Shown in pieces: positions 1 to 15,776 of a stretch of DNA of 38,687 nt (positions within the stretch are counted from its first letter, which is position 1; every line of letters begins with the position of its first letter). Source of the stretch: Escherichia coli (GTDB lineage: Bacteria; Pseudomonadota; Gammaproteobacteria; Enterobacterales; Enterobacteriaceae). Location of the stretch: assembly GCF_003334385.1 (NCBI RefSeq), contig NZ_QOWN01000041.1; one strand, 5' to 3'. Position numbers and translations under genes: made by a program. The notes under the pieces were generated by a model, which did no database searches, was not told where the DNA came from, and worked only from the letters and a program-made list of their open reading frames with translations.

Positions 1-102
1 GCTGAACTGTTGCTGGAAGACTACAAAGCCTCCCTGAAATATCTCAGCGATCACCCGAAACTGCAGGGTATTGCCCAACAGAACAGCTTTAAACATACCT
101 GA
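1..102 (+). CDS. gadB: glutamate decarboxylase B, 3' end only (5' end outside window)
   Basis: Frame 1 translates to ...[33 protein letters not shown] then TGA at 100-102; matches the GadB C-terminus as I recall it; gadC follows, as in the gadBC operon. Confidence 0.85.
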
Positions 103-122
103 TAACGTTTAACGGTAACGGT

Positions 123-148
123 GTCCCGAAACGAACCCGTTTCGGGAC
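123..148 (+). terminator. 10-bp perfect hairpin in the gadB-gadC intergenic region (possible partial terminator/attenuator)
   Basis: gtcccgaaac / gaaccc loop / gtttcgggac; followed by only a weak U-run (aatttcc). Confidence 0.35.
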
Positions 149-257
149 AATTTCCAAAGTCTGTTCACTGGCATTAGCAACGGAAAATATTGTTCTGAAT
201 ACGCTTCAGAACAAAACAGGTGCGGTTCCGACAGGAATACCGTTTTAGGGGGATAAT

Positions 258-1793
258 ATGGCTACATCAGTACAGACAGGTAAAGCTAAGCAGCTCACAT
301 TACTTGGATTCTTTGCCATAACGGCATCGATGGTAATGGCTGTTTATGAATACCCTACCTTCGCAACATCGGGCTTTTCATTAGTCTTCTTCCTGCTATT
401 AGGCGGGATTTTATGGTTTATTCCCGTGGGACTTTGTGCTGCGGAAATGGCCACCGTCGACGGCTGGGAAGAAGGTGGTGTCTTCGCCTGGGTATCAAAT
501 ACTCTGGGGCCGAGATGGGGATTTGCAGCGATCTCATTTGGCTATCTGCAAATCGCCATTGGTTTTATTCCGATGCTCTATTTCGTGTTAGGGGCACTCT
601 CCTACATCCTGAAATGGCCAGCGCTGAATGAAGACCCCATTACCAAAACTATTGCAGCACTCATCATTCTTTGGGCGCTGGCATTAACGCAGTTTGGTGG
701 CACGAAATACACGGCGCGAATTGCTAAAGTTGGCTTCTTCGCCGGTATCCTGTTACCTGCATTTATTTTGATCGCATTAGCGGCTATTTATCTGCACTCC
801 GGTGCCCCCGTTGCTATCGAAATGGATTCGAAGACCTTCTTCCCTGACTTCTCTAAAGTGGGCACCCTGGTAGTATTTGTTGCCTTCATTTTGAGTTATA
901 TGGGCGTAGAAGCATCCGCAACCCACGTCAATGAAATGAGCAACCCAGGGCGCGACTATCCGTTGGCTATGTTACTGCTGATGGTGGCGGCAATCTGCTT
1001 AAGCTCTGTTGGTGGTTTGTCTATTGCGATGGTCATTCCGGGTAATGAAATCAACCTCTCCGCAGGGGTAATGCAAACCTTTACCGTTCTGATGTCCCAT
1101 GTGGCACCAGAAATTGAGTGGACGGTTCGCGTGATCTCCGCACTGCTGTTGCTGGGTGTTCTGGCGGAAATCGCCTCCTGGATTGTTGGTCCTTCTCGCG
1201 GGATGTATGTCACAGCGCAGAAAAACCTGCTGCCAGCGGCATTCGCTAAAATGAACAAAAATGGCGTACCGGTAACGCTGGTCATTTCGCAGCTGGTGAT
1301 TACGTCTATCGCGTTGATCATCCTCACCAATACCGGTGGCGGTAACAACATGTCCTTCCTGATCGCACTGGCGCTGACGGTGGTGATTTATCTGTGTGCT
1401 TATTTCATGCTGTTTATTGGCTACATTGTGTTGGTTCTTAAACATCCTGACTTAAAACGCACATTTAATATCCCTGGTGGTAAAGGGGTGAAACTGGTCG
1501 TGGCAATTGTCGGTCTGCTGACTTCAATTATGGCGTTTATTGTTTCCTTCCTGCCGCCGGATAACATCCAGGGTGATTCTACCGATATGTATGTTGAATT
1601 ACTGGTTGTTAGTTTCCTGGTGGTACTTGCCCTGCCCTTTATTCTCTATGCTGTTCATGATCGTAAAGGCAAAGCAAATACCGGCGTCACTCTGGAGCCA
1701 ATCAACAGTCAGAACGCACCAAAAGGTCACTTCTTCCTGCACCCGCGTGCACGTTCACCACACTATATTGTGATGAATGACAAGAAACACTAA
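258..1793 (+). CDS. gadC: glutamate:GABA antiporter
   Basis: 511-aa polytopic membrane ORF ([22 protein letters not shown]...); RBS gggggataat before the ATG; length and sequence match GadC/XasA as recalled. Confidence 0.95.
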
Positions 1794-1816
1794 CCATGTC
1801 TGAATGGTTATAAGAC

Positions 1817-1847
1817 AAGGGAGCGATAATTCATCGCTCCCTTTTTC
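1817..1847 (+). terminator. rho-independent terminator after gadC
   Basis: Stem gggagcgat / loop aattc / atcgctccc followed by TTTTT. Confidence 0.7.
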
Positions 1848-1923
1848 GTGCTTGCTGTCGTATTGACTTAACGGGGATAAGTACGAGAATGAGCGCACAT
1901 CTGTTTACCGGAAACCAGCACAT

Positions 1924-3243
1924 ATGGATATCTGCTCCCGAAACAAGAAATTAACGATTAGAAGACCAGCGATACTAGTTGCACTGGCACTTTTACTGTG
2001 TAGTTGTAAAAGCACGCCTCCAGAGTCCATGGTGACACCACCAGCAGGTTCAAAGCCACCAGCCACGACGCAACAATCGTCACAACCGATGCGTGGCATC
2101 TGGCTGGCCACGGTTTCTCGGCTCGACTGGCCACCGGTTTCCTCGGTTAACATTAGTAACCCCACCAGCCGGGCCCGTGTACAACAACAGGCGATGATCG
2201 ACAAACTGGATCATCTGCAACGTCTCGGCATAAACACGGTCTTTTTCCAGGTCAAGCCGGACGGTACCGCCCTGTGGCCATCGAAAATTTTGCCGTGGTC
2301 CGATCTTATGACCGGTAAGATTGGTGAAAATCCGGGTTACGATCCGCTGCAATTTATGCTCGACGAAGCCCACAAGCGTGGGATGAAAGTACACGCCTGG
2401 TTTAACCCCTATCGCGTATCGGTTAATACGAAGCCCGGTACTATCAGGGAACTGAATAGCACTCTGTCTCAACAACCGGCGAGCGTCTATGTGCAACACC
2501 GCGACTGGATCAGAACGTCTGGCGATCGCTTTGTCCTCGACCCGGGCATCCCTGAGGTTCAGGACTGGATCACATCAATAGTCGCAGAAGTGGTTTCCCG
2601 CTATCCCGTAGATGGCGTGCAGTTTGACGACTATTTCTATACGGAGTCACCGGGTTCACGGCTAAATGATAACGAAACGTACCGTAAATACGGAGGCGCA
2701 TTTGCGTCAAAAGCAGACTGGCGGCGCAACAATACTCAGCAGTTAATTGCAAAGGTATCGCACACCATTAAAAGCATTAAGCCGGGAGTCGAATTTGGTG
2801 TTAGCCCGGCAGGCGTGTGGCGTAACCGATCACACGATCCGCTCGGTTCCGATACCCGAGGCGCGGCAGCCTATGACGAATCCTACGCTGACACCCGTCG
2901 ATGGGTGGAACAAGGATTGCTGGATTACATTGCTCCCCAAATTTACTGGCCGTTCTCACGGAGTGCCGCGCGTTATGACGTGTTGGCAAAATGGTGGGCG
3001 GATGTCGTTAAACCGACCAGGACCCGCCTGTATATCGGTATCGCCTTCTATAAAGTGGGTGAACCTTCAAAGATAGAGCCAGACTGGATGATTAACGGCG
3101 GCGTACCGGAACTGAAAAAGCAGCTCGATCTTAACGATGCTGTGCCCGAAATTAGCGGCACCATCTTGTTCCGTGAGGACTATCTGAATAAACCGCAGAC
3201 TCAACAAGCGGTCAGCTATCTGCAAAGTCGCTGGGGCAGTTAA
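1924..3243 (+). CDS. yddW: putative lipoprotein YddW (glycoside-hydrolase-like family)
   Basis: 439-aa ORF; N-terminal signal peptide with Cys-containing lipobox-like region (ALALLLCSCKS). Confidence 0.85.
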   Translation: MDICSRNKKLTIRRPAILVALALLLCSCKSTPPESMVTPPAGSKPPATTQQSSQPMRGIWLATVSRLDWPPVSSVNISNPTSRARVQQQAMIDKLDHLQRLGINTVFFQVKPDGTALWPSKILPWSDLMTGKIGENPGYDPLQFMLDEAHKRGMKVHAWFNPYRVSVNTKPGTIRELNSTLSQQPASVYVQHRDWIRTSGDRFVLDPGIPEVQDWITSIVAEVVSRYPVDGVQFDDYFYTESPGSRLNDNETYRKYGGAFASKADWRRNNTQQLIAKVSHTIKSIKPGVEFGVSPAGVWRNRSHDPLGSDTRGAAAYDESYADTRRWVEQGLLDYIAPQIYWPFSRSAARYDVLAKWWADVVKPTRTRLYIGIAFYKVGEPSKIEPDWMINGGVPELKKQLDLNDAVPEISGTILFREDYLNKPQTQQAVSYLQSRWGS

Positions 3244-3260
3244 ACTCCCATTCTTACTTT

Positions 3261-3295
3261 GTAACAAGCCGGTGCTTTACCCACCGGCTTGTTAC
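3261..3295 (+). terminator. 13-bp hairpin after yddW (no clear U-tract)
   Basis: gtaacaagccggt ... accggcttgttac inverted repeat just 3' of the yddW stop. Confidence 0.35.
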
Positions 3296-3410
3296 CCTCT
3301 TAAACTATCCCACTAATAATCATGCTTACTTAAGTCAAATTAACCACACTTAGTTAAACAGCCATAAATCCCTAATAAAAATGTATGAATATGAAAAACC
3401 ATACGATATT

Positions 3411-3446
3411 CGCTGTCACCGAAAAATAATTACGATGGGCTATACT
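3411..3446 (+). promoter_or_regulatory. candidate sigma-S-type promoter upstream of dosC (-10 cTATACT)
   Basis: gggCTATACTct at 3439-3446 resembles a sigma-S -10 with a -13 C; no good -35; would give a ~160-nt leader. Confidence 0.25.
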
Positions 3447-3606
3447 CTTCTGAAGAACAGTAGCGTAGATTGAAACTGTCCTAAATCGCTTATTTCTTTT
3501 CAGTATATCTTCATATTTCAGGAGAATATGGTGCAGTTAGTCGATCTCGCACGTTGCGTTTCATTTTGATTCCGTCTGATTTCCCAGCCTTATAAGGGTG
3601 TGAATT

Positions 3607-4989
3607 ATGGAGATGTATTTTAAAAGAATGAAAGATGAGTGGACCGGACTTGTCGAACAGGCAGATCCGCCCATTCGTGCTAAAGCCGCGGAAATTGCCG
3701 TTGCGCATGCTCATTATCTGAGTATCGAGTTTTATCGAATTGTCCGCATCGACCCGCATGCCGAAGAATTCTTGAGTAATGAACAAGTTGAGCGGCAGTT
3801 GAAGAGTGCGATGGAACGCTGGATTATTAACGTGCTTTCTGCCCAGGTTGACGATGTCGAAAGGCTAATACAAATCCAGCATACCGTCGCGGAAGTGCAT
3901 GCCCGCATAGGAATTCCGGTAGAAATTGTCGAGATGGGGTTTCGGGTGCTGAAAAAAATCCTCTATCCGGTGATCTTCTCTTCGGATTATTCCGCCGCAG
4001 AAAAACTTCAGGTCTACCATTTCTCGATTAACAGTATTGATATCGCGATGGAAGTGATGACTCGCGCGTTTACCTTTAGTGACAGTAGTGCCTCAAAGGA
4101 AGATGAAAACTATCGTATCTTCTCGTTACTGGAAAACGCCGAAGAAGAAAAAGAACGGCAAATAGCCTCAATACTTTCATGGGAAATAGATATTATCTAT
4201 AAAATCCTGCTGGATTCTGATTTAGGCAGTAGTTTGCCTTTAAGCCAGGCTGATTTTGGCCTGTGGTTTAACCATAAAGGTCGACATTATTTTAGTGGTA
4301 TTGCCGAAGTAGGCCATATCTCCCGTCTGATTCAGGATTTCGACGGTATTTTCAATCAAACCATGCGTAACACCAGAAATTTGAATAACAGAAGTCTGCG
4401 GGTGAAATTTTTATTACAGATAAGAAATACCGTATCGCAAATTATTACCTTGCTGCGTGAATTGTTTGAAGAAGTATCGCGCCACGAAGTCGGTATGGAT
4501 GTACTGACGAAATTACTTAACCGCCGTTTCCTACCGACTATCTTCAAACGCGAAATTGCCCATGCCAACCGGACCGGTACACCGCTGTCAGTGCTGATTA
4601 TTGACGTTGATAAATTCAAAGAGATCAATGATACGTGGGGCCATAACACTGGTGATGAAATTCTGCGTAAAGTCTCTCAGGCCTTTTATGACAACGTCCG
4701 CAGTAGTGATTATGTTTTCCGCTACGGGGGCGATGAATTTATCATTGTTTTGACTGAAGCTTCTGAAAACGAAACGTTACGTACCGCAGAACGTATTCGC
4801 AGTCGGGTGGAGAAAACCAAACTGAAAGCCGCAAACGGCGAAGATATTGCCCTCTCACTTTCCATCGGTGCCGCCATGTTTAATGGTCATCCTGACTATG
4901 AGCGCCTCATTCAAATAGCCGATGAAGCTCTGTATATCGCCAAAAGACGAGGTAGAAACCGTGTTGAACTCTGGAAAGCCAGTCTTTAG
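3607..4989 (+). CDS. dosC: globin-coupled diguanylate cyclase (O2-sensing GGDEF protein)
   Basis: 460-aa ORF; C-terminal GGDEF domain with RYGGDEF motif; ends ...RGRNRVELWKASL; RBS before the ATG. Confidence 0.92.
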   Translation: MEMYFKRMKDEWTGLVEQADPPIRAKAAEIAVAHAHYLSIEFYRIVRIDPHAEEFLSNEQVERQLKSAMERWIINVLSAQVDDVERLIQIQHTVAEVHARIGIPVEIVEMGFRVLKKILYPVIFSSDYSAAEKLQVYHFSINSIDIAMEVMTRAFTFSDSSASKEDENYRIFSLLENAEEEKERQIASILSWEIDIIYKILLDSDLGSSLPLSQADFGLWFNHKGRHYFSGIAEVGHISRLIQDFDGIFNQTMRNTRNLNNRSLRVKFLLQIRNTVSQIITLLRELFEEVSRHEVGMDVLTKLLNRRFLPTIFKREIAHANRTGTPLSVLIIDVDKFKEINDTWGHNTGDEILRKVSQAFYDNVRSSDYVFRYGGDEFIIVLTEASENETLRTAERIRSRVEKTKLKAANGEDIALSLSIGAAMFNGHPDYERLIQIADEALYIAKRRGRNRVELWKASL

Positions 4990-5013
4990 ATGCGCCAGGA
5001 TGCAGAGGTAATC

Positions 5014-5163
5014 ATGAAGCTAACCGATGCGGATAATGCCGCCGATGGCATTTTTTTCCCCGCCCTTGAGCAAAATATGATGTTTACGATGCGTATCGCC
5101 CACAACAAGCACAGGCGATGTTGTGGCAAGCCTGCCCAGACCCGCAATATGTTGTTGATGTGA
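5014..5163 (+). pseudogene. dosP: dosP 5' remnant: first 23 codons of dosP, then out-of-frame read into ddpX sequence (49-codon ORF)
   Basis: RBS gaggt plus ATG 25 nt after the dosC stop; MKLTDADNAADGIFFPALEQNMM matches the DosP N-terminus as recalled; from codon 24 the nucleotides are ddpX sequence in a different frame; stop at 5161-5163. Confidence 0.7.
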
Positions 5164-5468
5164 CGGTCGGTTCTAATCACAGCCGTGGCACGGCGATCGA
5201 CCTGACGCTTCGTGATGAGCACGGGAACATCCTCGATATGGGCGCAGGGTTCGATGAAATGCACGAGCGCTCCCATGCCTATCACCCTTCCGTCCCGCCC
5301 GCCGCTCAGCGCAATCGGCTGTTGCTGAATGCGATAATGACTGGTGGCGGTTTTGTCGGTATCTCCAGCGAATGGTGGCACTTCGAATTACCCCAGGCAG
5401 CGAGTTACCCTCTGCTCGCTGATCAATTCTCTTGTTTTATATCCCCTGGCACACAGCACGTCAGTTAA
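5085..5468 (+). pseudogene. ddpX: ddpX 3' remnant (D-Ala-D-Ala dipeptidase, VanX family) lacking about the first 60-75 codons
   Basis: ddpX-frame translation YDAYRPQQAQAMLWQACPDPQYVVDVTVGSNHSRGTAIDL...WWHFELPQ...; an in-frame TGA at 5067-5069 sits upstream and there is no start codon or RBS for a full-length product. Confidence 0.75.
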
Positions 5469-5481
5469 TCAGGAAACTGTC

Positions 5482-7032
5482 ATGAAGAGATCGATATCGT
5501 TTCGTCCCACATTGCTCGCGCTCGTCCTTGCCACAAATTTCCCGGTTGCGCACGCCGCCGTACCAAAAGATATGCTGGTGATTGGTAAGGCCGCCGATCC
5601 ACAAACCCTCGACCCGGCGGTAACAATAGATAATAACGACTGGACAGTGACCTACCCGTCTTATCAGCGGCTGGTTCAGTACAAAACGGACGGTGATAAA
5701 GGCTCAACCGACGTTGAAGGCGATCTGGCAAGTAGCTGGAAAGCGTCTGACGATCAAAAAGAGTGGACGTTCACCCTGAAAGATAATGCTAAATTTGCCG
5801 ATGGCACACCTGTCACTGCCGAAGCAGTAAAACTTTCTTTTGAGCGGCTACTAAAAATCGGCCAGGGGCCAGCAGAAGCATTTCCCAAAGATTTAAAGAT
5901 TGATGCTCCCGACGAACATACGGTGAAGTTTACCCTTAGCCAACCATTCGCACCGTTCCTCTACACGCTGGCGAATGACGGTGCATCCATTATCAATCCG
6001 GCGGTCTTAAAGGAACATGCAGCGGATGATGCTCGCGGCTTCCTCGCGCAAAATACCGCCGGTTCCGGACCATTTATGCTGAAAAGCTGGCAAAAAGGTC
6101 AGCAATTAGTTCTGGTGCCAAATCCGCATTACCTAGGCAATAAACCGAACTTCAAACGGGTATCGGTAAAAATTATTGGTGAAAGTGCCTCCCGTCGCCT
6201 GCAGCTCTCCCGTGGCGACATTGACATTGCCGATGCGCTGCCGGTGGATCAACTCAACGCCCTGAAGCAGGAAAATAAAGTCAATGTGGCAGAGTATCCG
6301 TCACTGCGCGTTACCTATCTGTATCTGAATAACAGCAAAGCGCCTCTTAATCAGGCGGATCTGCGTCGGGCCATTTCCTGGTCTACCGATTATCAGGGCA
6401 TGGTTAACGGCATTCTGAGTGGTAACGGAAAACAGATGCGCGGCCCGATTCCGGAAGGCATGTGGGGCTACGATGCGACGGCAATGCAATACAACCATGA
6501 CGAAACGAAAGCCAAAGCCGAATGGGATAAAGTGACGAGCAAACCCACCAGCCTGACGTTTCTCTACTCCGATAACGATCCGAACTGGGAGCCTATTGCT
6601 CTGGCGACACAATCCAGTCTCAACAAGCTGGGCATCATTGTGAAGCTGGAAAAGCTGGCGAACGCCACCATGCGCGACAGAGTGGGTAAAGGTGATTACG
6701 ACATTGCGATTGGCAACTGGAGTCCGGATTTTGCCGACCCGTATATGTTTATGAATTACTGGTTTGAGTCAGACAAAAAAGGTCTGCCGGGTAACCGCTC
6801 GTTCTATGAAAACAGTGAGGTCGATAAGTTACTGCGCAATGCGCTTGCGACCACCGACCAGACGCAGCGTACCCGGGACTACCAGCAGGCACAGAAAATC
6901 GTCATTGATGACGCTGCTTATGTGTACCTGTTCCAGAAAAACTACCAACTGGCGATGAACAAAGAGGTGAAAGGCTTTGTGTTCAATCCCATGCTGGAAC
7001 AGGTCTTCAATATCAATACCATGAGTAAATAA
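5482..7032 (+). CDS. ddpA: periplasmic D,D-dipeptide-binding protein (ABC transporter substrate-binding)
   Basis: 516-aa product from ATG 5482 (RBS aggaaa), with signal peptide MKRSISFRPTLLALVLATNFPVAHA; the ORF-track start at 5344 is an upstream in-frame extension. Confidence 0.92.
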   Translation: MKRSISFRPTLLALVLATNFPVAHAAVPKDMLVIGKAADPQTLDPAVTIDNNDWTVTYPSYQRLVQYKTDGDKGSTDVEGDLASSWKASDDQKEWTFTLKDNAKFADGTPVTAEAVKLSFERLLKIGQGPAEAFPKDLKIDAPDEHTVKFTLSQPFAPFLYTLANDGASIINPAVLKEHAADDARGFLAQNTAGSGPFMLKSWQKGQQLVLVPNPHYLGNKPNFKRVSVKIIGESASRRLQLSRGDIDIADALPVDQLNALKQENKVNVAEYPSLRVTYLYLNNSKAPLNQADLRRAISWSTDYQGMVNGILSGNGKQMRGPIPEGMWGYDATAMQYNHDETKAKAEWDKVTSKPTSLTFLYSDNDPNWEPIALATQSSLNKLGIIVKLEKLANATMRDRVGKGDYDIAIGNWSPDFADPYMFMNYWFESDKKGLPGNRSFYENSEVDKLLRNALATTDQTQRTRDYQQAQKIVIDDAAYVYLFQKNYQLAMNKEVKGFVFNPMLEQVFNINTMSK

Positions 7033-7033
7033 C

Positions 7034-8056
7034 GTGACCTTCTGGAGTATTTTACGCCAACGCTGCTGGGGGCTGGTGCTCGTGGTGGCGGGCGTCTGCG
7101 TGATTACGTTTATTATCTCGCATCTGATCCCTGGTGATCCGGCGCGGTTACTGGCGGGTGACCGCGCCAGCGATGCTATCGTGGAAAATATTCGCCAGCA
7201 ACTGGGACTGGACCAGCCACTGTATGTACAGTTTTACCGCTACGTCAGCGACCTGTTTCATGGTGACCTGGGAACATCCATTCGTACCGGGCGTCCGGTG
7301 CTGGAAGAGTTGCGTATATTTTTCCCGGCGACGCTGGAGCTGGCTTTTGGTGCCCTGCTGCTGGCACTCCTGATTGGCATCCCGCTGGGCATACTCTCTG
7401 CAGTCTGGCGAAATCGCTGGCTGGATCATCTGGTGCGAATAATGGCCATTACCGGAATCTCCACACCTGCGTTCTGGCTTGGGCTGGGCGTCATTGTGCT
7501 GTTTTATGGTCATCTGCAAATTCTTCCCGGCGGCGGAAGGCTTGATGACTGGCTGGATCCACCAACGCACGTTACCGGCTTTTATCTGCTCGATGCGCTG
7601 CTTGAAGGCAACGGTGAAGTCTTCTTCAATGCGTTGCAACATCTCATCTTACCGGCATTAACGCTGGCGTTCGTTCACCTGGGAATTGTCGCTCGCCAGA
7701 TCCGCTCAGCGATGCTGGAACAATTGAGTGAAGACTACATTCGTACCGCCCGGGCCAGCGGCTTGCCCGGCTGGTATATCGTTTTATGTTATGCGCTACC
7801 CAATGCGTTGATCCCATCGATTACCGTATTGGGTTTGGCGCTGGGCGATTTGTTGTATGGCGCAGTGCTCACCGAAACCGTTTTTGCCTGGCCCGGAATG
7901 GGTGCATGGGTAGTAACATCAATACAGGCGCTCGACTTCCCGGCAGTGATGGGCTTTGCCGTCGTGGTTTCATTTGCTTATGTGCTGGTCAACCTGGTGG
8001 TGGATTTGCTCTATTTGTGGATTGATCCGCGTATCGGACGTGGAGGTGGTGAATGA
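7034..8056 (+). CDS. ddpB: D,D-dipeptide ABC transporter permease
   Basis: 340-aa membrane ORF with GTG start abutting the ddpA stop; DppB/OppB-like permease. Confidence 0.9.
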   Translation: MTFWSILRQRCWGLVLVVAGVCVITFIISHLIPGDPARLLAGDRASDAIVENIRQQLGLDQPLYVQFYRYVSDLFHGDLGTSIRTGRPVLEELRIFFPATLELAFGALLLALLIGIPLGILSAVWRNRWLDHLVRIMAITGISTPAFWLGLGVIVLFYGHLQILPGGGRLDDWLDPPTHVTGFYLLDALLEGNGEVFFNALQHLILPALTLAFVHLGIVARQIRSAMLEQLSEDYIRTARASGLPGWYIVLCYALPNALIPSITVLGLALGDLLYGAVLTETVFAWPGMGAWVVTSIQALDFPAVMGFAVVVSFAYVLVNLVVDLLYLWIDPRIGRGGGE

Positions 8057-8949
8057 TGCTAAGCGAGGAAACGTCCGCCGTACGCCCACAAAAACAAACG
8101 CGATTTAACGGTGCAAAACTGGTATGGATGCTGAAAGGCAGTCCGCTCACCGTGACCAGCGCAGTCATCATTGTATTAATGCTATTGATGATGATTTTTT
8201 CACCGTGGCTGGCGACGCATGATCCCAACGCCATTGATTTAACCGCCCGCCTTTTGCCGCCTTCTGCGGCGCACTGGTTTGGCACCGATGAAGTGGGACG
8301 CGATCTGTTTAGCCGCGTACTGGTCGGCAGTCAGCAATCAATTCTCGCCGGATTAGTCGTGGTTGCCATTGCGGGTATGATTGGTTCGCTACTCGGATGT
8401 CTATCCGGTGTGCTTGGTGGACGCGCAGACGCCATCATCATGCGCATCATGGACATTATGCTGTCGATTCCTTCGTTGGTACTGACAATGGCACTGGCTG
8501 CCGCTCTCGGGCCGAGTTTGTTTAACGCCATGCTGGCTATTGCTATTGTGCGAATTCCCTTTTATGTGCGCCTGGCGCGGGGGCAAGCATTAGTTGTACG
8601 CCAGTATACCTATGTTCAGGCGGCGAAAACCTTTGGCGCGTCTCGTTGGCATCTGATCAACTGGCATATTTTACGTAACTCCCTACCGCCGCTGATCGTG
8701 CAGGCATCGCTGGATATCGGTAGCGCGATTTTAATGGCCGCCACGTTGGGATTTATTGGCCTGGGTGCTCAACAACCGAGTGCTGAATGGGGCGCGATGG
8801 TAGCAAATGGTCGCAACTATGTACTCGATCAGTGGTGGTATTGCGCATTTCCGGGGGCAGCGATTTTGCTTACCGCCGTCGGGTTTAATCTCTTTGGTGA
8901 TGGTATTCGCGATCTGCTTGACCCGAAAGCAGGAGGAAAGCAGTCATGA
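8053..8949 (+). CDS. ddpC: D,D-dipeptide ABC transporter permease
   Basis: 298-aa membrane ORF overlapping ddpB by 4 nt; DppC-like. Confidence 0.9.
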   Translation: MMLSEETSAVRPQKQTRFNGAKLVWMLKGSPLTVTSAVIIVLMLLMMIFSPWLATHDPNAIDLTARLLPPSAAHWFGTDEVGRDLFSRVLVGSQQSILAGLVVVAIAGMIGSLLGCLSGVLGGRADAIIMRIMDIMLSIPSLVLTMALAAALGPSLFNAMLAIAIVRIPFYVRLARGQALVVRQYTYVQAAKTFGASRWHLINWHILRNSLPPLIVQASLDIGSAILMAATLGFIGLGAQQPSAEWGAMVANGRNYVLDQWWYCAFPGAAILLTAVGFNLFGDGIRDLLDPKAGGKQS

Positions 8950-9932
8950 CCCAACCCGTTCTGGACATTCAACAACTGCATTTGAGTTTCCCCGGTTTTA
9001 ACGGTGATGTTCACGCGCTCAACAATGTGTCCTTGCAGATTAACCGCGGTGAAATTGTCGGTCTGGTGGGAGAATCCGGCTCAGGTAAATCAGTCACCGC
9101 AATGCTGATTATGCGTCTGCTACCGACGGGCAGTTATTGCGTACATCGGGGGCAGATTTCCCTGCTGGGAGAAGATGTTCTTAACGCGCGGGAAAAACAG
9201 CTTCGTCAGTGGCGCGGCGCACGAGTGGCGATGATCTTTCAGGAACCGATGACCGCCCTCAATCCGACACGTCGAATAGGTCTTCAGATGATGGACGTGA
9301 TCCGCCATCATCAACCAATAAGTCGTCGGGAAGCCAGAGCTAAAGCGATTGACCTGCTGGAAGAGATGCAAATCCCGGATGCCGTGGAAGTTATGTCGCG
9401 CTATCCGTTTGAGCTTTCAGGTGGTATGCGCCAGCGGGTAATGATTGCGCTGGCATTCTCCTGCGAGCCGCAATTGATTATTGCCGACGAACCGACTACG
9501 GCGCTGGACGTCACGGTGCAGTTGCAGGTACTGCGTTTGCTTAAACATAAAGCCCGCGCCAGTGGAACTGCGGTTCTGTTCATCAGCCATGATATGGCCG
9601 TGGTGTCGCAACTGTGCGATAGCGTTTACGTGATGTATGCCGGAAGCGTAATTGAAAGCGGCGTGACGGCAGACGTTATCCATCATCCCCGGCATCCGTA
9701 TACCATTGGTTTGCTGCAATGCGCACCAGAACATGGAGTACCACGCCAGCTATTACCCGCCATTCCAGGGACGGTACCAAACCTCACCCATTTGCCTGAC
9801 GGCTGCGCTTTTCGCGATCGTTGCTATGCGGCAGGTGCACAATGTGAAAACGTCCCGGCGCTGACAGCGTGTGGTGACAACAACCAGCGCTGTGCCTGTT
9901 GGTATCCGCAGCAGGAGGTTATAAGTGTCTGA
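8946..9932 (+). CDS. ddpD: D,D-dipeptide ABC transporter ATP-binding protein
   Basis: 328-aa ORF; Walker A GESGSGKS, signature LSGGMRQR, Walker B IIADEPT. Confidence 0.9.
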   Translation: MTQPVLDIQQLHLSFPGFNGDVHALNNVSLQINRGEIVGLVGESGSGKSVTAMLIMRLLPTGSYCVHRGQISLLGEDVLNAREKQLRQWRGARVAMIFQEPMTALNPTRRIGLQMMDVIRHHQPISRREARAKAIDLLEEMQIPDAVEVMSRYPFELSGGMRQRVMIALAFSCEPQLIIADEPTTALDVTVQLQVLRLLKHKARASGTAVLFISHDMAVVSQLCDSVYVMYAGSVIESGVTADVIHHPRHPYTIGLLQCAPEHGVPRQLLPAIPGTVPNLTHLPDGCAFRDRCYAAGAQCENVPALTACGDNNQRCACWYPQQEVISV

Positions 9933-10851
9933 CACGTTATTAACGTTACGCGACGTCCATATCAATTTCCCGGCCCGTAAAAACTGGCTTGGTAAAACTA
10001 CGGAACATGTTCATGCCATTAATGGTATTGATTTACAGATCCGCCGTGGTGAAACCTTAGGGATCGTCGGCGAGTCAGGCTGCGGCAAAAGCACCCTCGC
10101 ACAGCTTTTAATGGGTATGCTGCAACCGAGCCACGGGCAGTACATCCGTTCTGGCTCACAACGCATTATGCAGATGGTGTTTCAGGACCCGCTCTCTTCG
10201 CTTAATCCGCGCTTACCGGTGTGGCGCATCATCACAGAACCGCTCTGGATAGCTAAGCGTAGTAGTGAACAACAGCGGCGAGCGTTGGCAGAGGAGTTGG
10301 CTGTGCAGGTGGGTATTCGTCCGGAGTATCTCGACCGCCTGCCTCATGCGTTCTCCGGCGGGCAGCGGCAACGTATCGCCATTGCCAGAGCACTCTCTTC
10401 GCAGCCTGACGTGATTGTGCTTGATGAGCCAACCTCTGCGCTGGATATCTCCGTTCAGGCGCAGATCCTCAATTTACTGGTAACGCTACAGGAAAATCAC
10501 GGGCTGACCTATGTGCTGATTTCACACAATGTCTCGGTGATACGTCATATGAGCGATCGGGTGGCGGTGATGTATCTCGGGCAGATTGTAGAACTGGGCG
10601 ACGCGCAGCAGGTGCTGACGGCACCTGCACATCCATACACCCGATTATTGCTGGATTCCCTCCCCGCCATTGATAAACCGCTGGAGGAAGAATGGGCATT
10701 ACGTAAAACGGATCTGCCGGGAAACCGCACGTTGCCGCAAGGCTGTTTTTTCTACGAACGTTGCCCGCTGGCAACCCACGGATGTGAAGTCCGGCAATCA
10801 TTAGCAATAAGGGAGGACGGACGTGAGCTCCGGTGCTGGCGGGCGCTGTAG
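9925..10851 (+). CDS. ddpF: D,D-dipeptide ABC transporter ATP-binding protein
   Basis: 308-aa ORF, GTG start; Walker A GESGCGKST, signature FSGGQRQR, Walker B LDEPTSALD. Confidence 0.9.
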   Translation: MSDTLLTLRDVHINFPARKNWLGKTTEHVHAINGIDLQIRRGETLGIVGESGCGKSTLAQLLMGMLQPSHGQYIRSGSQRIMQMVFQDPLSSLNPRLPVWRIITEPLWIAKRSSEQQRRALAEELAVQVGIRPEYLDRLPHAFSGGQRQRIAIARALSSQPDVIVLDEPTSALDISVQAQILNLLVTLQENHGLTYVLISHNVSVIRHMSDRVAVMYLGQIVELGDAQQVLTAPAHPYTRLLLDSLPAIDKPLEEEWALRKTDLPGNRTLPQGCFFYERCPLATHGCEVRQSLAIREDGRELRCWRAL

Positions 10852-10861
10852 AGATGCTAAC

Positions 10862-10900
10862 AACGCATCAGGCATTCACGCGCCTGACGCGTCATCCGGC
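10862..10900. repeat. REP-like palindromic element between the convergent ddpF and osmC stops
   Basis: gcatcaggcattcacgcgcctgacgcgtcatccggca resembles the REP consensus (gccggatg...cctgatgc). Confidence 0.4.
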
Positions 10901-10906
10901 AATGCT

Positions 10907-11338
10907 TTACGATTTCAACTGGTAATCCAGCGTAATTTCCGCTTTCAGTACCTGAGAGACCGGGCATCCTGCTTTTGCTTTCTGGATTATGCCGTCAAAG
11001 GTAGAGGCATCAATACCCGGCACCGCAACTTCACTCTTCAGTGCGATTTTCGTAATCGCAAAACCGGCATCCACTTTATCCAGCGACACATCGGCGGTGG
11101 TATCAATCGATGTTGGCGTGAATCCCGCTTCCCCCAGCATTAATGAAAGCGCCATTGAGAAACATGCGGCATGCGCTGCGCCAATCAGTTCTTCAGGGTT
11201 GGTTCCTTTTTCGCCTTCAAAACGCGTGTTAAATCCATACGGCTGTTGGTTCAGCACGCCACTCTCGGTGGATACTGTTCCCTTCCCGCGTTTGATATCG
11301 CCTTCCCAGTGTGCCTGACCTTTCTTATGGATTGTCAT
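10907..11338 (-). CDS. osmC: osmotically inducible peroxiredoxin OsmC
   Basis: 143-aa ORF MTIHKKGQAHWEGDIKRGKG...; RBS aggaga; OsmC/Ohr fold signature. Confidence 0.93.
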   Translation of the reverse strand: MTIHKKGQAHWEGDIKRGKGTVSTESGVLNQQPYGFNTRFEGEKGTNPEELIGAAHAACFSMALSLMLGEAGFTPTSIDTTADVSLDKVDAGFAITKIALKSEVAVPGIDASTFDGIIQKAKAGCPVSQVLKAEITLDYQLKS

Positions 11339-11359
11339 TGTTGCTCTCCTGTGGGCTTA

Positions 11360-11420
11360 AAAAGGAAATTATAGACTACGTGAGAAACAGCACGAGGATA
11401 AGCAGGATATTCCGAATAAA
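11360..11420 (-). promoter_or_regulatory. osmC promoter region: sigma-S-like -10 (cTATAAT on the minus strand) and putative RcsB box
   Basis: Minus-strand agtcTATAATtt around 11365-11376; ggataagcaggatattccgaat at 11394-11417 resembles an RcsB box; assignment rests on recalled osmC regulation. Confidence 0.35.
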
Positions 11421-11682
11421 ATCCGGCGAAAATATTACTTCTGCACTTAAATTAAATTCCCACAATAGATTACCGGGAATATATAACCCAAAAGATATTG
11501 TATCAATATTAATCGGATCATACCAATCACAATCCCTATGAATATCATGGTGTTAAAATATAAAAATCATCAACCAGGACTAATCTTAACAACGAAGCGG
11601 CAAATATTTGCCATGCTGAATGTGCTTTATAAATCTGCGATCCGTAGCAGACACCATAAATACACAGACACGGAGAATCACT

Positions 11683-11898
11683 ATGTTTACTTATTATCAG
11701 GCAGAAAATTCAACAGCAGAACCCGCTCTGGTTAATGCCATTGAGCAAGGCCTTCGGGCACAGCATGGTGTTGTCACTGAAGATGACATTCTCATGGAGC
11801 TGACCAAATGGGTTGAAGCTTCTGATAACGACATCCTCAGTGATATCTACCAGCAAACGATCAATTATGTGGTCAGTGGCCAGCACCCTACGCTTTAA
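11683..11898 (+). CDS. bdm: biofilm-dependent modulation protein
   Basis: 71-aa product MFTYYQAENSTAEPALVNAIEQGL... from the internal ATG at 11683; the ORF-track start at 11620 is an upstream extension. Confidence 0.85.
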   Translation: MFTYYQAENSTAEPALVNAIEQGLRAQHGVVTEDDILMELTKWVEASDNDILSDIYQQTINYVVSGQHPTL

Positions 11899-11999
11899 GG
11901 TGCTATGCTTGATCGGCAACCTAATTTAGGGGTTTAGCACGTGTTTCTTCGCTACGGCGATGTTGTCCTTAAAACTAGCTACAGGATTGAGGAGTTAAA

Positions 12000-12137
12000 A
12001 TGAAATCGAACCGTCAGGCACGTCATATTCTTGGACTGGACCATAAAATTTCTAACCAGCGCAAAATAGTTACCGAAGGTGACAAATCCAGCGTAGTAAA
12101 TAACCCAACCGGCAGAAAACGCCCCGCTGAAAAGTAA
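12000..12137 (+). CDS. sra: stationary-phase-induced ribosome-associated protein (30S subunit protein S22)
   Basis: 45-codon [48 protein letters not shown] with RBS ggag; below the ORF-track cutoff, found by manual translation. Confidence 0.85.
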
Positions 12138-12166
12138 TTCATAACCATCAGTCCTCAATGACGATT

Positions 12167-12202
12167 AAACACCATTGCCTGCGCAATGGTGTTTTTGTTT
12201 TT
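12167..12202 (+). terminator. rho-independent terminator after sra
   Basis: caccattgc / ctgc / gcaatggtg followed by TTTTTgTTTTT. Confidence 0.75.
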
Positions 12203-12293
12203 ATCTGCTTTATACTTGAGGCCGACGCCCTGGCGGTAAAGCAAAGACGATAAAAGCCCCCCAGGGATGGATATTCAAAAAAGAGTGAGTGAC

Positions 12294-13991
12294 ATGGAAC
12301 CAAAAACAAAAAAACAGCGTTCGCTTTATATCCCTTACGCTGGCCCTGTACTGCTGGAATTTCCGTTGTTGAATAAAGGCAGTGCCTTCAGCATGGAAGA
12401 ACGCCGTAACTTCAACCTGCTGGGGTTACTGCCGGAAGTGGTCGAAACCATCGAAGAACAAGCGGAACGAGCATGGATCCAGTATCAGGGATTCAAAACC
12501 GAAATCGACAAACACATCTACCTGCGTAACATCCAGGACACTAACGAAACCCTCTTCTACCGTCTGGTAAACAATCATCTTGATGAGATGATGCCTGTTA
12601 TTTATACCCCAACCGTCGGCGCAGCCTGTGAGCGTTTTTCTGAGATCTACCGCCGTTCACGCGGCGTGTTTATCTCTTACCAGAACCGGCACAATATGGA
12701 CGATATTCTGCAAAACGTGCCGAACCATAATATTAAAGTGATTGTGGTGACTGACGGTGAACGCATTCTGGGGCTTGGTGACCAGGGCATCGGCGGGATG
12801 GGCATTCCGATCGGTAAACTGTCGCTCTATACCGCCTGTGGCGGCATCAGCCCGGCGTATACCCTTCCGGTGGTGCTGGATGTCGGAACGAACAACCAAC
12901 AGCTGCTTAACGATCCGCTGTATATGGGCTGGCGTAATCCGCGTATCACTGACGACGAATACTATGAATTCGTTGATGAATTTATCCAGGCTGTGAAACA
13001 ACGCTGGCCAGACGTGCTGTTGCAGTTTGAAGACTTTGCTCAAAAAAATGCGATGCCGTTACTTAACCGCTATCGCAATGAAATTTGTTCTTTTAACGAT
13101 GACATTCAGGGCACTGCGGCGGTAACAGTCGGCACACTGATCGCAGCAAGCCGCGCGGCAGGTGGTCAGTTAAGCGAGAAAAAAATCGTCTTCCTTGGCG
13201 CAGGTTCAGCGGGATGCGGCATTGCCGAAATGATCATCTCCCAGACCCAGCGCGAAGGATTAAGCGAGGAAGCGGCGCGGCAGAAAGTCTTTATGGTCGA
13301 TCGCTTTGGCTTGCTGACTGACAAGATGCCGAACCTGCTGCCTTTCCAGACCAAACTGGTGCAGAAGCGCGAAAACCTCAGTGACTGGGATACCGACAGC
13401 GATGTGCTGTCACTGCTGGATGTGGTGCGCAATGTAAAACCAGATATTCTGATTGGCGTCTCAGGACAGACCGGGCTGTTTACGGAAGAGATCATCCGTG
13501 AGATGCATAAACACTGTCCGCGTCCGATCGTGATGCCGCTGTCTAACCCGACGTCACGCGTGGAAGCCACACCGCAGGACATTATCGCCTGGACCGAAGG
13601 TAACGCGCTGGTCGCCACGGGCAGCCCGTTTAATCCAGTGGTATGGAAAGATAAAATCTACCCTATCGCCCAGTGTAACAACGCCTTTATTTTCCCGGGC
13701 ATCGGCCTGGGTGTTATTGCTTCCGGCGCGTCACGTATCACCGATGAGATGCTGATGTCGGCAAGTGAAACGCTGGCGCAGTATTCACCATTGGTGCTGA
13801 ACGGCGAAGGTATGGTACTGCCGGAACTGAAAGATATTCAGAAAGTCTCCCGCGCAATTGCGTTTGCGGTTGGCAAAATGGCGCAGCAGCAAGGCGTGGC
13901 GGTGAAAACCTCTGCCGAAGCCCTGCAACAGGCCATTGACGATAATTTCTGGCAAGCCGAATACCGCGACTACCGCCGTACCTCCATCTAA
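12294..13991 (+). CDS. maeA: NAD-dependent malic enzyme
   Basis: 565-aa product from [23 protein letters not shown]...; malic-enzyme motifs; the ORF-track start at 12267 is an upstream in-frame extension. Confidence 0.93.
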
Positions 13992-13997
13992 GCCTGC

Positions 13998-14040
13998 GCC
14001 CGGTAGTGAAGGCTACCGGGCTATTTCCCTCTCCCTTTTT
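13998..14040 (+). terminator. hairpin plus T-rich tract after maeA
   Basis: gcccggtag / tgaagg / ctaccgggc then tatttccctctcccttttt. Confidence 0.5.
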
Positions 14041-14124
14041 CAGATCTCATCCATACTGGGTAGTGGCGAATAAATCTCATTTGCCTCACCTGCTATGCAG
14101 AACATCATCCGAAAAGGAGGAACT

Positions 14125-15135
14125 ATGAAGGCTGCAGTTGTTACGAAGGATCATCATGTTGACGTTACGTATAAAACACTGCGCTCACTGAAACATGGCG
14201 AAGCCCTGCTGAAAATGGAGTGTTGTGGTGTATGTCATACCGATCTTCATGTTAAGAATGGCGATTTTGGTGACAAAACCGGCGTAATTCTGGGCCATGA
14301 AGGCATCGGTGTGGTGGCAGAAGTGGGTCCAGGTGTCACCTCATTAAAACCAGGCGATCGTGCCAGCGTGGCGTGGTTCTACGAAGGATGCGGTCATTGC
14401 GAATACTGTAACAGTGGTAACGAAACGCTCTGCCGTTCAGTTAAAAATGCCGGATACAGCGTTGATGGCGGGATGGCGGAAGAGTGCATCGTGGTCGCCG
14501 ATTACGCGGTAAAAGTGCCAGATGGTCTGGACTCGGCGGCGGCCAGCAGCATTACCTGTGCGGGAGTCACCACCTACAAAGCCGTTAAGCTGTCAAAAAT
14601 TCGTCCAGGGCAGTGGATTGCTATCTACGGTCTTGGCGGTCTGGGTAACCTCGCCCTGCAATACGCGAAGAATGTCTTTAACGCCAAAGTGATCGCCATT
14701 GATGTCAATGATGAGCAGTTAAAACTGGCAACCGAAATGGGCGCAGATTTAGCGATTAACTCACACACCGAAGACGCCGCCAAAATTGTGCAGGAGAAAA
14801 CTGGTGGCGCTCACGCTGCGGTGGTAACAGCGGTAGCTAAAGCTGCGTTTAACTCGGCAGTTGATGCTGTCCGTGCAGGCGGTCGTGTTGTGGCTGTCGG
14901 TCTACCGCCGGAGTCTATGAGCCTGGATATCCCACGTCTTGTGCTGGATGGTATTGAAGTGGTCGGTTCGCTGGTCGGCACGCGCCAGGATTTAACTGAA
15001 GCCTTCCAGTTTGCCGCCGAAGGTAAAGTGGTGCCGAAAGTCGCCCTGCGTCCGTTAGCGGACATCAACACCATCTTTACTGAGATGGAAGAAGGCAAAA
15101 TCCGTGGCCGCATGGTGATTGATTTCCGTCACTAA
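14125..15135 (+). CDS. adhP: Zn-dependent alcohol dehydrogenase, propanol-preferring
   Basis: 336-aa product [19 protein letters not shown]...; Zn-ADH motifs GHEGIGVV and CGHCEYC; RBS aaaaggagg. Confidence 0.93.
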
Positions 15136-15144
15136 GAGGCCTTT

Positions 15145-15174
15145 GCTGCGACTGCCATGTTCGGGTCGCAGCAT
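15145..15174 (+). terminator. hairpin after adhP (no U-tract)
   Basis: tgctgcgac ... gtcgcagca inverted repeat. Confidence 0.3.
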
Positions 15175-15280
15175 CGCACACTCTCCAACATGAAATGGCT
15201 AAATGGATTATTGTTGCGTAGGAAGGAACAATAATGATAGTGTTCCCAGTGAAGGAACGCTACTGAGAGTAAAGACACTA

Positions 15281-15565
15281 ATGAAAATGGCCAATCATCC
15301 CCGCCCGGGGGACATTATTCAGGAATCACTGGACGAACTTAATGTCAGCCTGCGCGAGTTTGCCAGAGCAATGGAAATTGCTCCCTCAACGGCAAGCCGA
15401 TTGCTGACAGGAAAAGCAGCTTTGACGCCAGAAATGGCGATTAAACTTTCCGTGGTGATCGGCAGTTCGCCGCAAATGTGGCTGAATCTGCAAAACGCCT
15501 GGAGTCTGGCAGAGGCAGAAAAAACAGTGGATGTGTCGCGATTACGCCGTCTGGTTACGCAATAA
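15281..15565 (+). CDS. yddM: Xre/HigA-like helix-turn-helix DNA-binding protein
   Basis: 94-aa product [45 protein letters not shown]...; HTH motif evident; start chosen at the internal ATG by recollection of YddM length. Confidence 0.75.
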
Positions 15566-15617
15566 AAAAATGGCACTTTATAAAGCGCCATTTAGAACTG
15601 ATGACAAACGCAACATT

Positions 15618-15715
15618 GCCTGATGCGCTACGCTTATCAGGCCTACACGTTCACTGCAATCTATTGGATTTGAAGGGTTTTCATGCCGGATAAGGCGTTC
15701 ACGCCGCATCCGGCA
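15618..15715. repeat. BIME: two inverted REP elements
   Basis: gcctgatgcgctacgcttatcaggcctac and tgccggataaggcgttcacgccgcatccggca; canonical REP sequences. Confidence 0.85.
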
Positions 15716-15744
15716 TGAACAAAGCCTACGTTGTCTACAATATG

Positions 15745-15776
15745 AAAATGGCGCCTTTTACAGCGCCATTTTCAGC
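15745..15776. terminator. bidirectional terminator between yddM (+) and fdnI (-)
   Basis: aaaatggcgc / cttttaca / gcgccatttt; A/T runs on both sides. Confidence 0.55.

Follow-up and report, generated by a model that had tools for sequence, protein, structure and literature searches.

The DosC and DosP proteins of Escherichia coli are a diguanylate cyclase/phosphodiesterase (DGC/PDE) pair that acts with PNPase, and in the wild type the dosCP genes are co-transcribed. DosP is described as the most abundant stationary-phase PDE (PMC11543664). Published dosP knockouts have only mild phenotypes, with filamentous growth and biofilm formation that shows no gross defect. The RpoN/NtrC promoter of the ddpXABCDF genes sits in the dos-ddpX spacer, and induction of ddpX reaches 104-fold (PMC8743547).

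The closest described counterparts of the allele reported here are the laboratory Δdos and ΔdosP (pdeO) mutants of K-12, in which the phosphodiesterase is gone, dosC (dgcO) is kept and the PNPase-associated pair is broken. The window, which is the whole 38,687-nucleotide stretch of E. coli DNA that was analysed, shares these properties, but its allele is scar-free and apparently natural, it also takes out the ddp promoter with the 5' third of ddpX, which leaves ddpABCDF directly behind dosC. In FDAARGOS_1248 and 200112 the same locus has lost about 2.3 kb of dosP, leaving a short N-terminal “PAS domain” ORF after dosC; there, however, the breakpoints extend from about codon 65 of dosP to the spacer, and ddpX is intact. 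An overlap of 14 nt, as repeat-mediated slippage typically leaves, flanks the FDAARGOS_1248 deletion, whereas in the window no homology is found at the junction and ddpX is destroyed. In two other genomes, CAVP880 and GCA_002510955.1, the dosC-dosP-ddpX interval has likewise been hit by deletions that are independent and specific to their lineages. The first (dosC'-dosP) differs in that the 3' half of dosC is also lost and ddpX is whole, and the second is a 234-bp deletion of the ddpX start only, with dosP kept. These independent events and the one in the window indicate sporadic loss of the interval in E. coli, though it is preserved in more than 97% of complete genomes.

DdpX is also dispensable, and has been repeatedly lost, in B2 strains, Shigella and other E. 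coli. In B2 genomes the match to the deleted segment ends just beyond dosP, and ddp appears to be absent from them, judging by the missing megablast match. A 61-nt ddpA probe found no match in 1,203 of the 5,426 genomes, and ddpX is split in several assemblies, including Shigella and E. coli frameshift alleles. Those losses are either ancient or due to point mutations and frameshifts, whereas in the window a single deletion takes dosP together with the 5' end of ddpX.

Alignment of the window with K-12 MG1655 reveals collinear sequences of about 99.95% identity, interrupted by a single clean gap. Window positions 1-5082 correspond to K-12 L003 1353-6434 (2 mismatches in 5,082 nt) and those from 5083 onwards to L003 from 9219 (3 mismatches in 10,689 nt), a match on both flanks that is close enough to rule out a chance pattern. 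At the deletion junction (5082..5083), where L003 6434 abuts 9219, codon 23 of dosP runs into nt 197 of ddpX (codon 66, second position), and exactly 2,784 bp (L003 6435-9218) are missing. “Codon 23” refers to the 799-aa RefSeq/UniProt start and is codon 31 in the historical 807-aa numbering, which begins at ATG 4990. The lost DNA comprises dosP codons 24-799, the terminator-like hairpin of that gene, a 257-nt spacer and ddpX codons 1-65 plus 1 nt, so that the deletion runs 453 nt past the end of dosP. The same breakpoints are obtained against LR-64-2, the closest complete genome, in which dosP and ddpX are intact. A sequence-only reading had proposed the join of dosP codon 23 to the middle of ddpX, with ddpX sequence in a different frame from about 5083; both alignments bear this out and place the change exactly at 5083. 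Its estimate of 60-75 lost ddpX codons narrows to 65 codons and 1 nt, and its deletion size of about 2.5 kb proves too small. The distance from the dosC stop to the ddpA start is 493 nt in the window and 3,277 nt in K-12; the reference spacing is thus not the same, and the wild-type PCR product, put beforehand at about 3.1 kb, should be about 3.3 kb.

The junction itself is blunt. The breakpoints share 0 nt of microhomology, no base is inserted, the junction slides in neither direction, and a search within ±40 nt found no local similarity between the two sites. Slippage mediated by repeats or microhomology was considered and rejected, as the breakpoints have 0 nt in common. The junction has no FRT or loxP scar and, as already stated from the sequence alone, no scar, cassette or IS of any kind; every base belongs to K-12 dosP or ddpX. 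Collinear flanks, freedom from foreign DNA and homology, and a junction reproduced in independent data are together the marks of a homology-independent deletion, and the window shows all three. The best explanation, to which we give a probability of about 0.9, is that a natural lineage fixed a chromosomal deletion of 2,784 bp that had arisen spontaneously in a single step, with the consequences described below. Because the junction is blunt, its most likely route would be the joining of two broken ends without homology (illegitimate recombination). The zero microhomology is not decisive for the enzyme system involved, be it gyrase-mediated exchange or RecBCD/LigA end joining, since about 56% of random breakpoints share no base by chance.

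Remnants of both genes flank the junction. The dosC stop (TAG, 4987-4989) is followed, as first noticed in the sequence, by an AGAGG Shine-Dalgarno motif and an ATG at 5014, from which MKLTDADNAADGIFFPALEQNMM is encoded, corresponding to K-12 DosP residues 1-23. This dosP 5' remnant (codons 1-23; 5014..5082, + strand) is identical to K-12 L003 6366-6434. Since ddpX is entered at nt 197, it is out of frame with dosP, and the hybrid ORF (5014..5163, + strand) stops at TGA 5161-5163 after 49 codons, in agreement with the initial description, with 23 DosP residues followed by 26 out-of-frame residues from ddpX DNA. An exact record of its product exists in the Logan assemblies; the search that retrieved it found no record of the 57-aa ORF starting at ATG 4990. 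The ddpX 3' remnant (nt 197-582 of 582; 5083..5468, + strand) is closed at its upstream end by an in-frame TGA at 5067-5069. The TGA had been read correctly, but the accompanying statement that this frame has no start codon is valid only as far as the internal ATG at 5118 (M78), the sole usable start. Gene callers predict there a 116-aa ddpX remnant (5118-5468) without R71 and without the N-terminal 40% of the fold. In an alignment to VanX (1R44), DdpX R71 equals VanX R71, the conserved YRP arginine, and lies upstream of the remaining start M78. The ddpX ribosome-binding site is deleted along with the first 65 codons, while the loss of DosP residues 24-799 covers both PAS domains, the GGDEF domain and the EAL domain. 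Judged by its sequence, the locus has null alleles of dosP and ddpX, and neither the 49-aa nor the 116-aa ORF should be counted as a gene.

The genes on either side, dosC and ddpABCDF, stay full length. In the ORF list dosC (dgcO; 3607..4989, + strand) encodes an intact oxygen-sensing diguanylate cyclase of 460 aa, with Pfam matches to Protoglobin, DosC_2nd and GGDEF that were found on the identical Logan dosC gene. Its single difference from K-12 is synonymous (N341, AAC>AAT) and present in 3 complete genomes, SCU-104 among them. ORF and gene calls give ddpA (5483..7032, + strand) its intact length of 516 aa, and SNP comparison shows a private P218L change that none of the 4,223 matching complete genomes shares. 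The genes ddpB (7034-8056), ddpC (8053-8949), ddpD (8946-9932) and ddpF (9925-10851), all on the + strand, have K-12 length according to gene calls on an identical Logan contig, shifted by +47; a synonymous SNP in ddpD is the sole difference from K-12 across ddpBCDF (7034..10851).

What ddpABCDF has lost is its upstream control region. The deleted K-12 segment carries a terminator-like hairpin just 3' of the dosP stop and, 45 nt upstream of the ddpX start, the motif TGGCAT-N5-CTGCA. The σ54 pattern by itself is not enriched (8 matches against about 18.6 expected), and the motif is taken as a candidate σ54 site solely on the strength of its position, which coincides with that of the published promoter (PMC8743547). 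Downstream of the junction, the sequence up to ddpA retains no σ54-like or σ70-like site. With the promoter gone, ddpABCDF would lose control by nitrogen limitation, and its expression would depend entirely on transcription that starts at the stationary-phase dosC promoter and reads through 493 nt without a strong terminator; dependence on such read-through is a prediction, and a probable one. The sole terminator-like signal left between dosC and ddpA is a hairpin with a T7 run after it, located in the 5' codons that dosP retains (5035..5052, + strand). It is native to wild-type dosP, with the sequence found in K-12, and the co-transcription of wild-type dosCP passes through it. This hairpin and T-run could attenuate the predicted read-through into ddpA.

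For the cell, DosC would then make c-di-GMP without its partnered O2-activated phosphodiesterase, and cleavage of D-Ala-D-Ala by DdpX would no longer be possible. The mild phenotypes of dosP knockouts suggest that the physiological effect of the deletion may be small. In annotation, dosP (pdeO) and ddpX of this lineage are to be treated as deleted or as pseudogenes, and its phenotypes in oxygen-dependent c-di-GMP turnover, curli/PGA regulation and D-Ala-D-Ala use should be read with the deletion in mind. The allele adds one more natural split of a DGC/PDE pair, with DosC retained and DosP gone; it is new, yet it is an ordinary gene loss of a familiar kind. The isolates, if obtainable, would offer a natural background in which to gauge the restraint of DosP on DosC.

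The allele is rare. The junction occurs in none of 5,426 complete E. coli genomes, of which 5,394 carry the missing segment, at 80% coverage or more in 97.8%. Three Logan contigs encode the junction ORF, namely ERR1948963_181 (5 samples), SRR3823653_403 and one more. Two of the three were compared with the window, and these (ERR1948963 and SRR3823653) are 100% identical to it over 15,116 and 7,111 nt, private SNPs included. The exact 40-nt junction had 0 matches among JGI metagenome contigs. Ten other contigs with the 116-aa ddpX remnant were considered as junction carriers and rejected, apart from the known ERR1948963 contig; in these, ddpX has a frameshift or nonsense mutation or a 234-bp deletion of another kind, or the contig is an ENA metagenome scaffold with 100-N gaps, an artefact.

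The same deletion might instead have been adaptive and not neutral, either because unopposed DosC raises c-di-GMP, with effects on matrix production or on phage or stress phenotypes, or because ddpABCDF was rewired to the dosC promoter. This is rather unlikely. The recurrence of at least three other independent deletions at the locus (FDAARGOS_1248/200112, CAVP880 and GCA_002510955.1) speaks in its favour, as do the abundance ascribed to DosP in stationary phase (PMC11543664) and the shift in phage N4 infection outcome with PDE dosage. Yet those deletions differ in extent and have no common ddpX outcome, knockouts of dosP are mild, the allele is confined to three Logan contigs, with none in complete genomes or JGI metagenome contigs, and the 97.8% retention implies that dosP is usually maintained. 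The rewiring version, distinctly unlikely when scored on its own, would have one step create a new dosC-ddpABCDF operon by removing dosP, the terminator and the σ54/NtrC promoter. If true, a D,D-dipeptide ABC importer without its dipeptidase would be co-expressed in stationary phase with an unopposed diguanylate cyclase, and the lineage would gain higher c-di-GMP and altered recycling of cell-wall dipeptides.

A deliberate scarless deletion made in a K-12-like strain, for instance by counter-selection or CRISPR, would account for the perfectly clean junction, for a length that is a multiple of three (2,784 = 3 x 928) and for flanks very near K-12. It is nonetheless very unlikely, because the breakpoints disregard gene boundaries (23 dosP codons are kept and ddpX is entered at the second position of codon 66), the two gene fragments are joined in different frames, and no FRT/loxP scar or cassette is present. 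Moreover, the strain is not K-12, as its private SNPs and the copy number of a 178-bp repeat show, and the junction is in no complete laboratory-strain genome. The earlier judgement that this is not an engineered knockout is supported by the boundaries within codons and genes, the out-of-frame fusion and the clean join.

Harder still to credit is a two-step route, in which an IS that had entered dosP or ddpX deleted the DNA next to it before being precisely lost itself. Adjacent deletions by IS are common in E. coli and Shigella, and the window contains ISAs1-family elements at a distance of about 30 kb; but the junction shows neither IS sequence nor an inverted-repeat remnant nor a target-site duplication, K-12 sequence accounting for every base, and two rare events would be needed where one suffices. 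Least credible is an assembly artefact that collapsed or mis-joined a full-length dosP-ddpX: the window does resemble a short-read contig, beginning in the gadB/gadA repeat and finishing in an rhs/IS region, and mis-joins can occur in such assemblies, but the breakpoints have no repeat or k-mer overlap to collapse, and Logan contigs covering two run series and at least six samples show the very same junction in independent assemblies, which largely refutes it. Of the origins first listed, assembly collapse therefore falls and spontaneous deletion in the strain lineage stands.

The spontaneous deletion can be placed in its lineage. The allele is real and, on sequence comparison, apparently from a rarely sampled E. 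coli lineage near K-12-like phylogroup A strains. About 14 SNPs in 38 kb are private with respect to both K-12 and LR-64-2, including 6134 T and 9842 A. They are mostly transitions, and those within intact genes are mostly synonymous, as expected of a wild lineage under purifying selection. When SNPs flanking the deletion were probed for closer relatives among complete genomes, no informative sister genome emerged. The 178-bp repeat has a copy number in the window that differs from that of K-12, and a leucine-rich-repeat pseudogene in the window has the ORF structure seen in K-12.

The genes of the window run from gadB' through gadC, digH and dosC, across a short anomalous stretch, into ddpA-F and osmC, and onward to narZ and the rhs region. 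The dosC gene (3607-4989) ends in a TAG stop at 4987-4989, 3' of which a Shine-Dalgarno AGAGG precedes an ATG at 5014; the 23 codons beginning there are identical to those for K-12 DosP residues 1-23. From base 5083 the sequence is that of ddpX, starting with nucleotide 197 of 582 (codon 66, second position), and the dosP frame, 49 codons in all, continues out of frame through this DNA to a TGA at 5161-5163. The ddpX frame itself is shut upstream by a TGA at 5067-5069 and offers no start before an internal ATG at 5118 (DdpX M78), which leaves a 116-aa remnant ORF. All coordinates of the sequence-only reading held when the window sequence and its ORFs were rechecked.

The breakpoints were obtained by BLAST against a 44.5-kb stretch of K-12 MG1655 (L003), in which two blocks are relevant. 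Window 1-5082 corresponds to L003 1353-6434 with 2 mismatches, and window 5083-15771 to L003 9219-19907 with 3, placing the exact breakpoints at L003 6434 and 9219. The absent segment (L003 6435-9218) measures exactly 2,784 bp and comprises dosP codons 24-799 with the stop, the entire 257-nt dosP-ddpX spacer, and ddpX nucleotides 1-196. A join of dosP codon 23 to the middle of ddpX had been proposed from the sequence alone, and these points stand; the accompanying size, roughly 2.5 kb, was slightly low. Between the dosC stop and the ddpA start lie 493 nt in the window and 3,277 nt in K-12, so the compact spacing is not that of the reference.

The junction is absent from complete genomes. A 1.1-kb junction probe matches 5,408 of 5,426 complete E. 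coli genomes, none of which carries the junction intact, and every match splits at query position 384 (window 5083). The halves of the probe lie close together in two records only, FDAARGOS_1248 and strain 200112, where the deletion is a different one. The 2,784-bp segment is present in 5,394 of the 5,426 genomes, with at least 80% coverage in 5,306 (97.8%). By exact-sequence look-up, the 49-aa junction product is found on three Logan-assembled contigs; a search of JGI metagenome contigs for the junction found none. Two of the Logan contigs were fetched and match the window with 100% identity: ERR1948963_181, which recurs as one contig in 5 samples, over 15,116 nt, and SRR3823653_403 over 7,111 nt. 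These stretches take in the junction as well as SNPs private to the window, and the same junction therefore occurs in independent assemblies from two run series. Together with the breakpoints against K-12, this confirms the deletion. Spontaneous deletion, strain variant and assembly collapse had all been offered as origins; the first two are supported, and collapse, like the notion of an edited sequence, is ruled out by the independent assemblies and by the lack of any sequence common to the breakpoints. Both Logan contigs begin at window position 48, inside the gadB 3' end (the gadA/gadB repeat), and the window ends (38687) inside an rhs pseudogene, so that it resembles an entire contig of a short-read assembly, with repeats at both ends.

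The most economical explanation of the deletion is probably a single event of homology-independent illegitimate recombination, which would have proceeded by double-strand-break end joining or topoisomerase-mediated exchange, enzyme systems that are indistinguishable from sequence. This model rests on a junction that is blunt and lacks homology, insertion, IS end or FRT/loxP scar, and on boundaries that disregard gene limits. Slippage between repeats is contradicted by the 0 nt of microhomology, the junction sliding in neither direction, and a comparison of the two breakpoint neighbourhoods found no similarity between them. By contrast, the allele of FDAARGOS_1248 and 200112 has a 14-nt junction overlap, the classic repeat-mediated signature. 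IS-mediated deletion fails for want of an IS end at the junction. An engineered knockout, already deemed unlikely because no scar, cassette or IS was seen, is rejected on the same grounds: there is no inserted base, FRT or loxP site, and the boundaries ignore gene limits. The allele is thus an ordinary spontaneous gene loss, a loss-of-function deletion of a familiar kind. It is also new, with no published description found and no complete genome carrying the junction.

Both dosP and ddpX are predicted to be null, because DosP is cut to 23 native residues and DdpX could at best start from M78, without R71. The heme-PAS, PAS, GGDEF and EAL domains of intact DosP are all gone. Alignment with VanX (PDB 1R44) identifies R71 as the conserved "YRP" arginine, which in VanX is the transition-state-stabilising residue. 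The remnant retains the SxHxxGxAxD and EWWH motifs, which in VanX bear the zinc ligands and catalytic glutamate. The dosC gene is intact with one synonymous SNP only, and ddpA-F are all at K-12 length.

In wild type, dosC and dosP are co-transcribed, and their products form an O2-responsive DGC/PDE pair acting with PNPase in the degradosome. An RpoN/NtrC promoter in the dos-ddpX spacer drives ddpXABCDF, and nitrogen depletion induces ddpX about 104-fold (PMC8743547). The K-12 segment that was deleted holds a hairpin resembling a terminator, 10 nt beyond the dosP stop, and the sequence TGGCAT-N5-CTGCA, 45 nt in front of the ddpX start; no equivalent of either was found in the window. DosC would consequently act without its dedicated phosphodiesterase, and ddpABCDF would lose nitrogen control, its only expression coming from dosC-promoter transcripts that read through the 493 nt. 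The sole terminator-like element in this interval is a 7-bp-stem hairpin followed by T7 (5035-5052), native to the first dosP codons and shared with wild-type K-12. Despite its terminator-like score, dosCP is co-transcribed, wild-type transcription passing through it. The physiological effect may be modest, since the dosP knockouts described in the literature show mild phenotypes. Adaptive rewiring into a dosC-ddpABCDF operon is improbable, the recurrent loss at this locus being the one finding in its favour. The value of the spontaneous deletion lies in correct annotation and in a possible natural dosC-positive, dosP-negative background.

Other, independent lesions affect the same locus. FDAARGOS_1248 (L002 3290-3680) and 200112 carry an independent deletion of about 2.3 kb, from early dosP to the dosP-ddpX spacer; an ORF of 102 aa, a 'PAS domain S-box protein', remains, and ddpX is intact. 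E. coli CAVP880 (L017 2301-3121) has independently lost the dosC 3' half and all of dosP, keeping ddpX and ddpA-C. In GCA_002510955.1 (L013, about 3990) a 234-bp deletion removes the ddpX start (L003 9009-9242), its right breakpoint only 24 nt from that of the window. Several ddpX frameshift or nonsense alleles also occur, and in several assemblies of E. coli and Shigella (L007, L008, L009 and L015; ~3766-4046) the splitting of ddpX into ORFs of 69-91 aa and 116 aa indicates that its pseudogenisation is recurrent. NCBI names the 116-aa product 'Shigella sonnei D-alanyl-D-alanine dipeptidase'. Apparent ddpX rearrangements in four ENA metagenome scaffolds (L010, L011, L012 and L016) are artefacts of 100-N scaffold gaps, for example L010 3878-3977, sometimes with duplicated flanks. 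In B2 genomes the match to the deleted segment ends just past dosP. The ddp genes would seem dispensable, as a ddpA probe is without match in about 22% of the complete genomes.

The window differs from K-12 by 18 SNPs, alignment noise in a repeat set aside, and, in the yddM-fdnI interval, is 178 bp shorter at a tandem repeat of a 178-bp unit, of which it has one copy fewer (window 15560-15771, L003 19712-20085; 2.1 copies in K-12, a single copy in the window and LR-64-2). Judged by these differences, it is not K-12. LR-64-2, the best relative among complete genomes, is 16 SNPs away with dosP and ddpX intact, and the lineage is without a close representative there. The SNP pattern reads as natural divergence under purifying selection, and not as sequencing error or a laboratory derivative, because the SNPs private against both genomes are mostly transitions (13 of 14) and those within intact genes mostly synonymous. 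One private non-synonymous change, ddpA P218L (window 6134, codon 218, CCA>CTA), is absent from all 4,223 complete genomes that a 61-nt probe matches; it may stem from a relaxation of selection on ddp, an operon now without promoter and dipeptidase, or from chance. The sole Rfam gathering-score match in the window is a SECIS_3 element in fdnG (19744-19802, - strand, 84 bits), which fits the selenocysteine codon of formate dehydrogenase-N.
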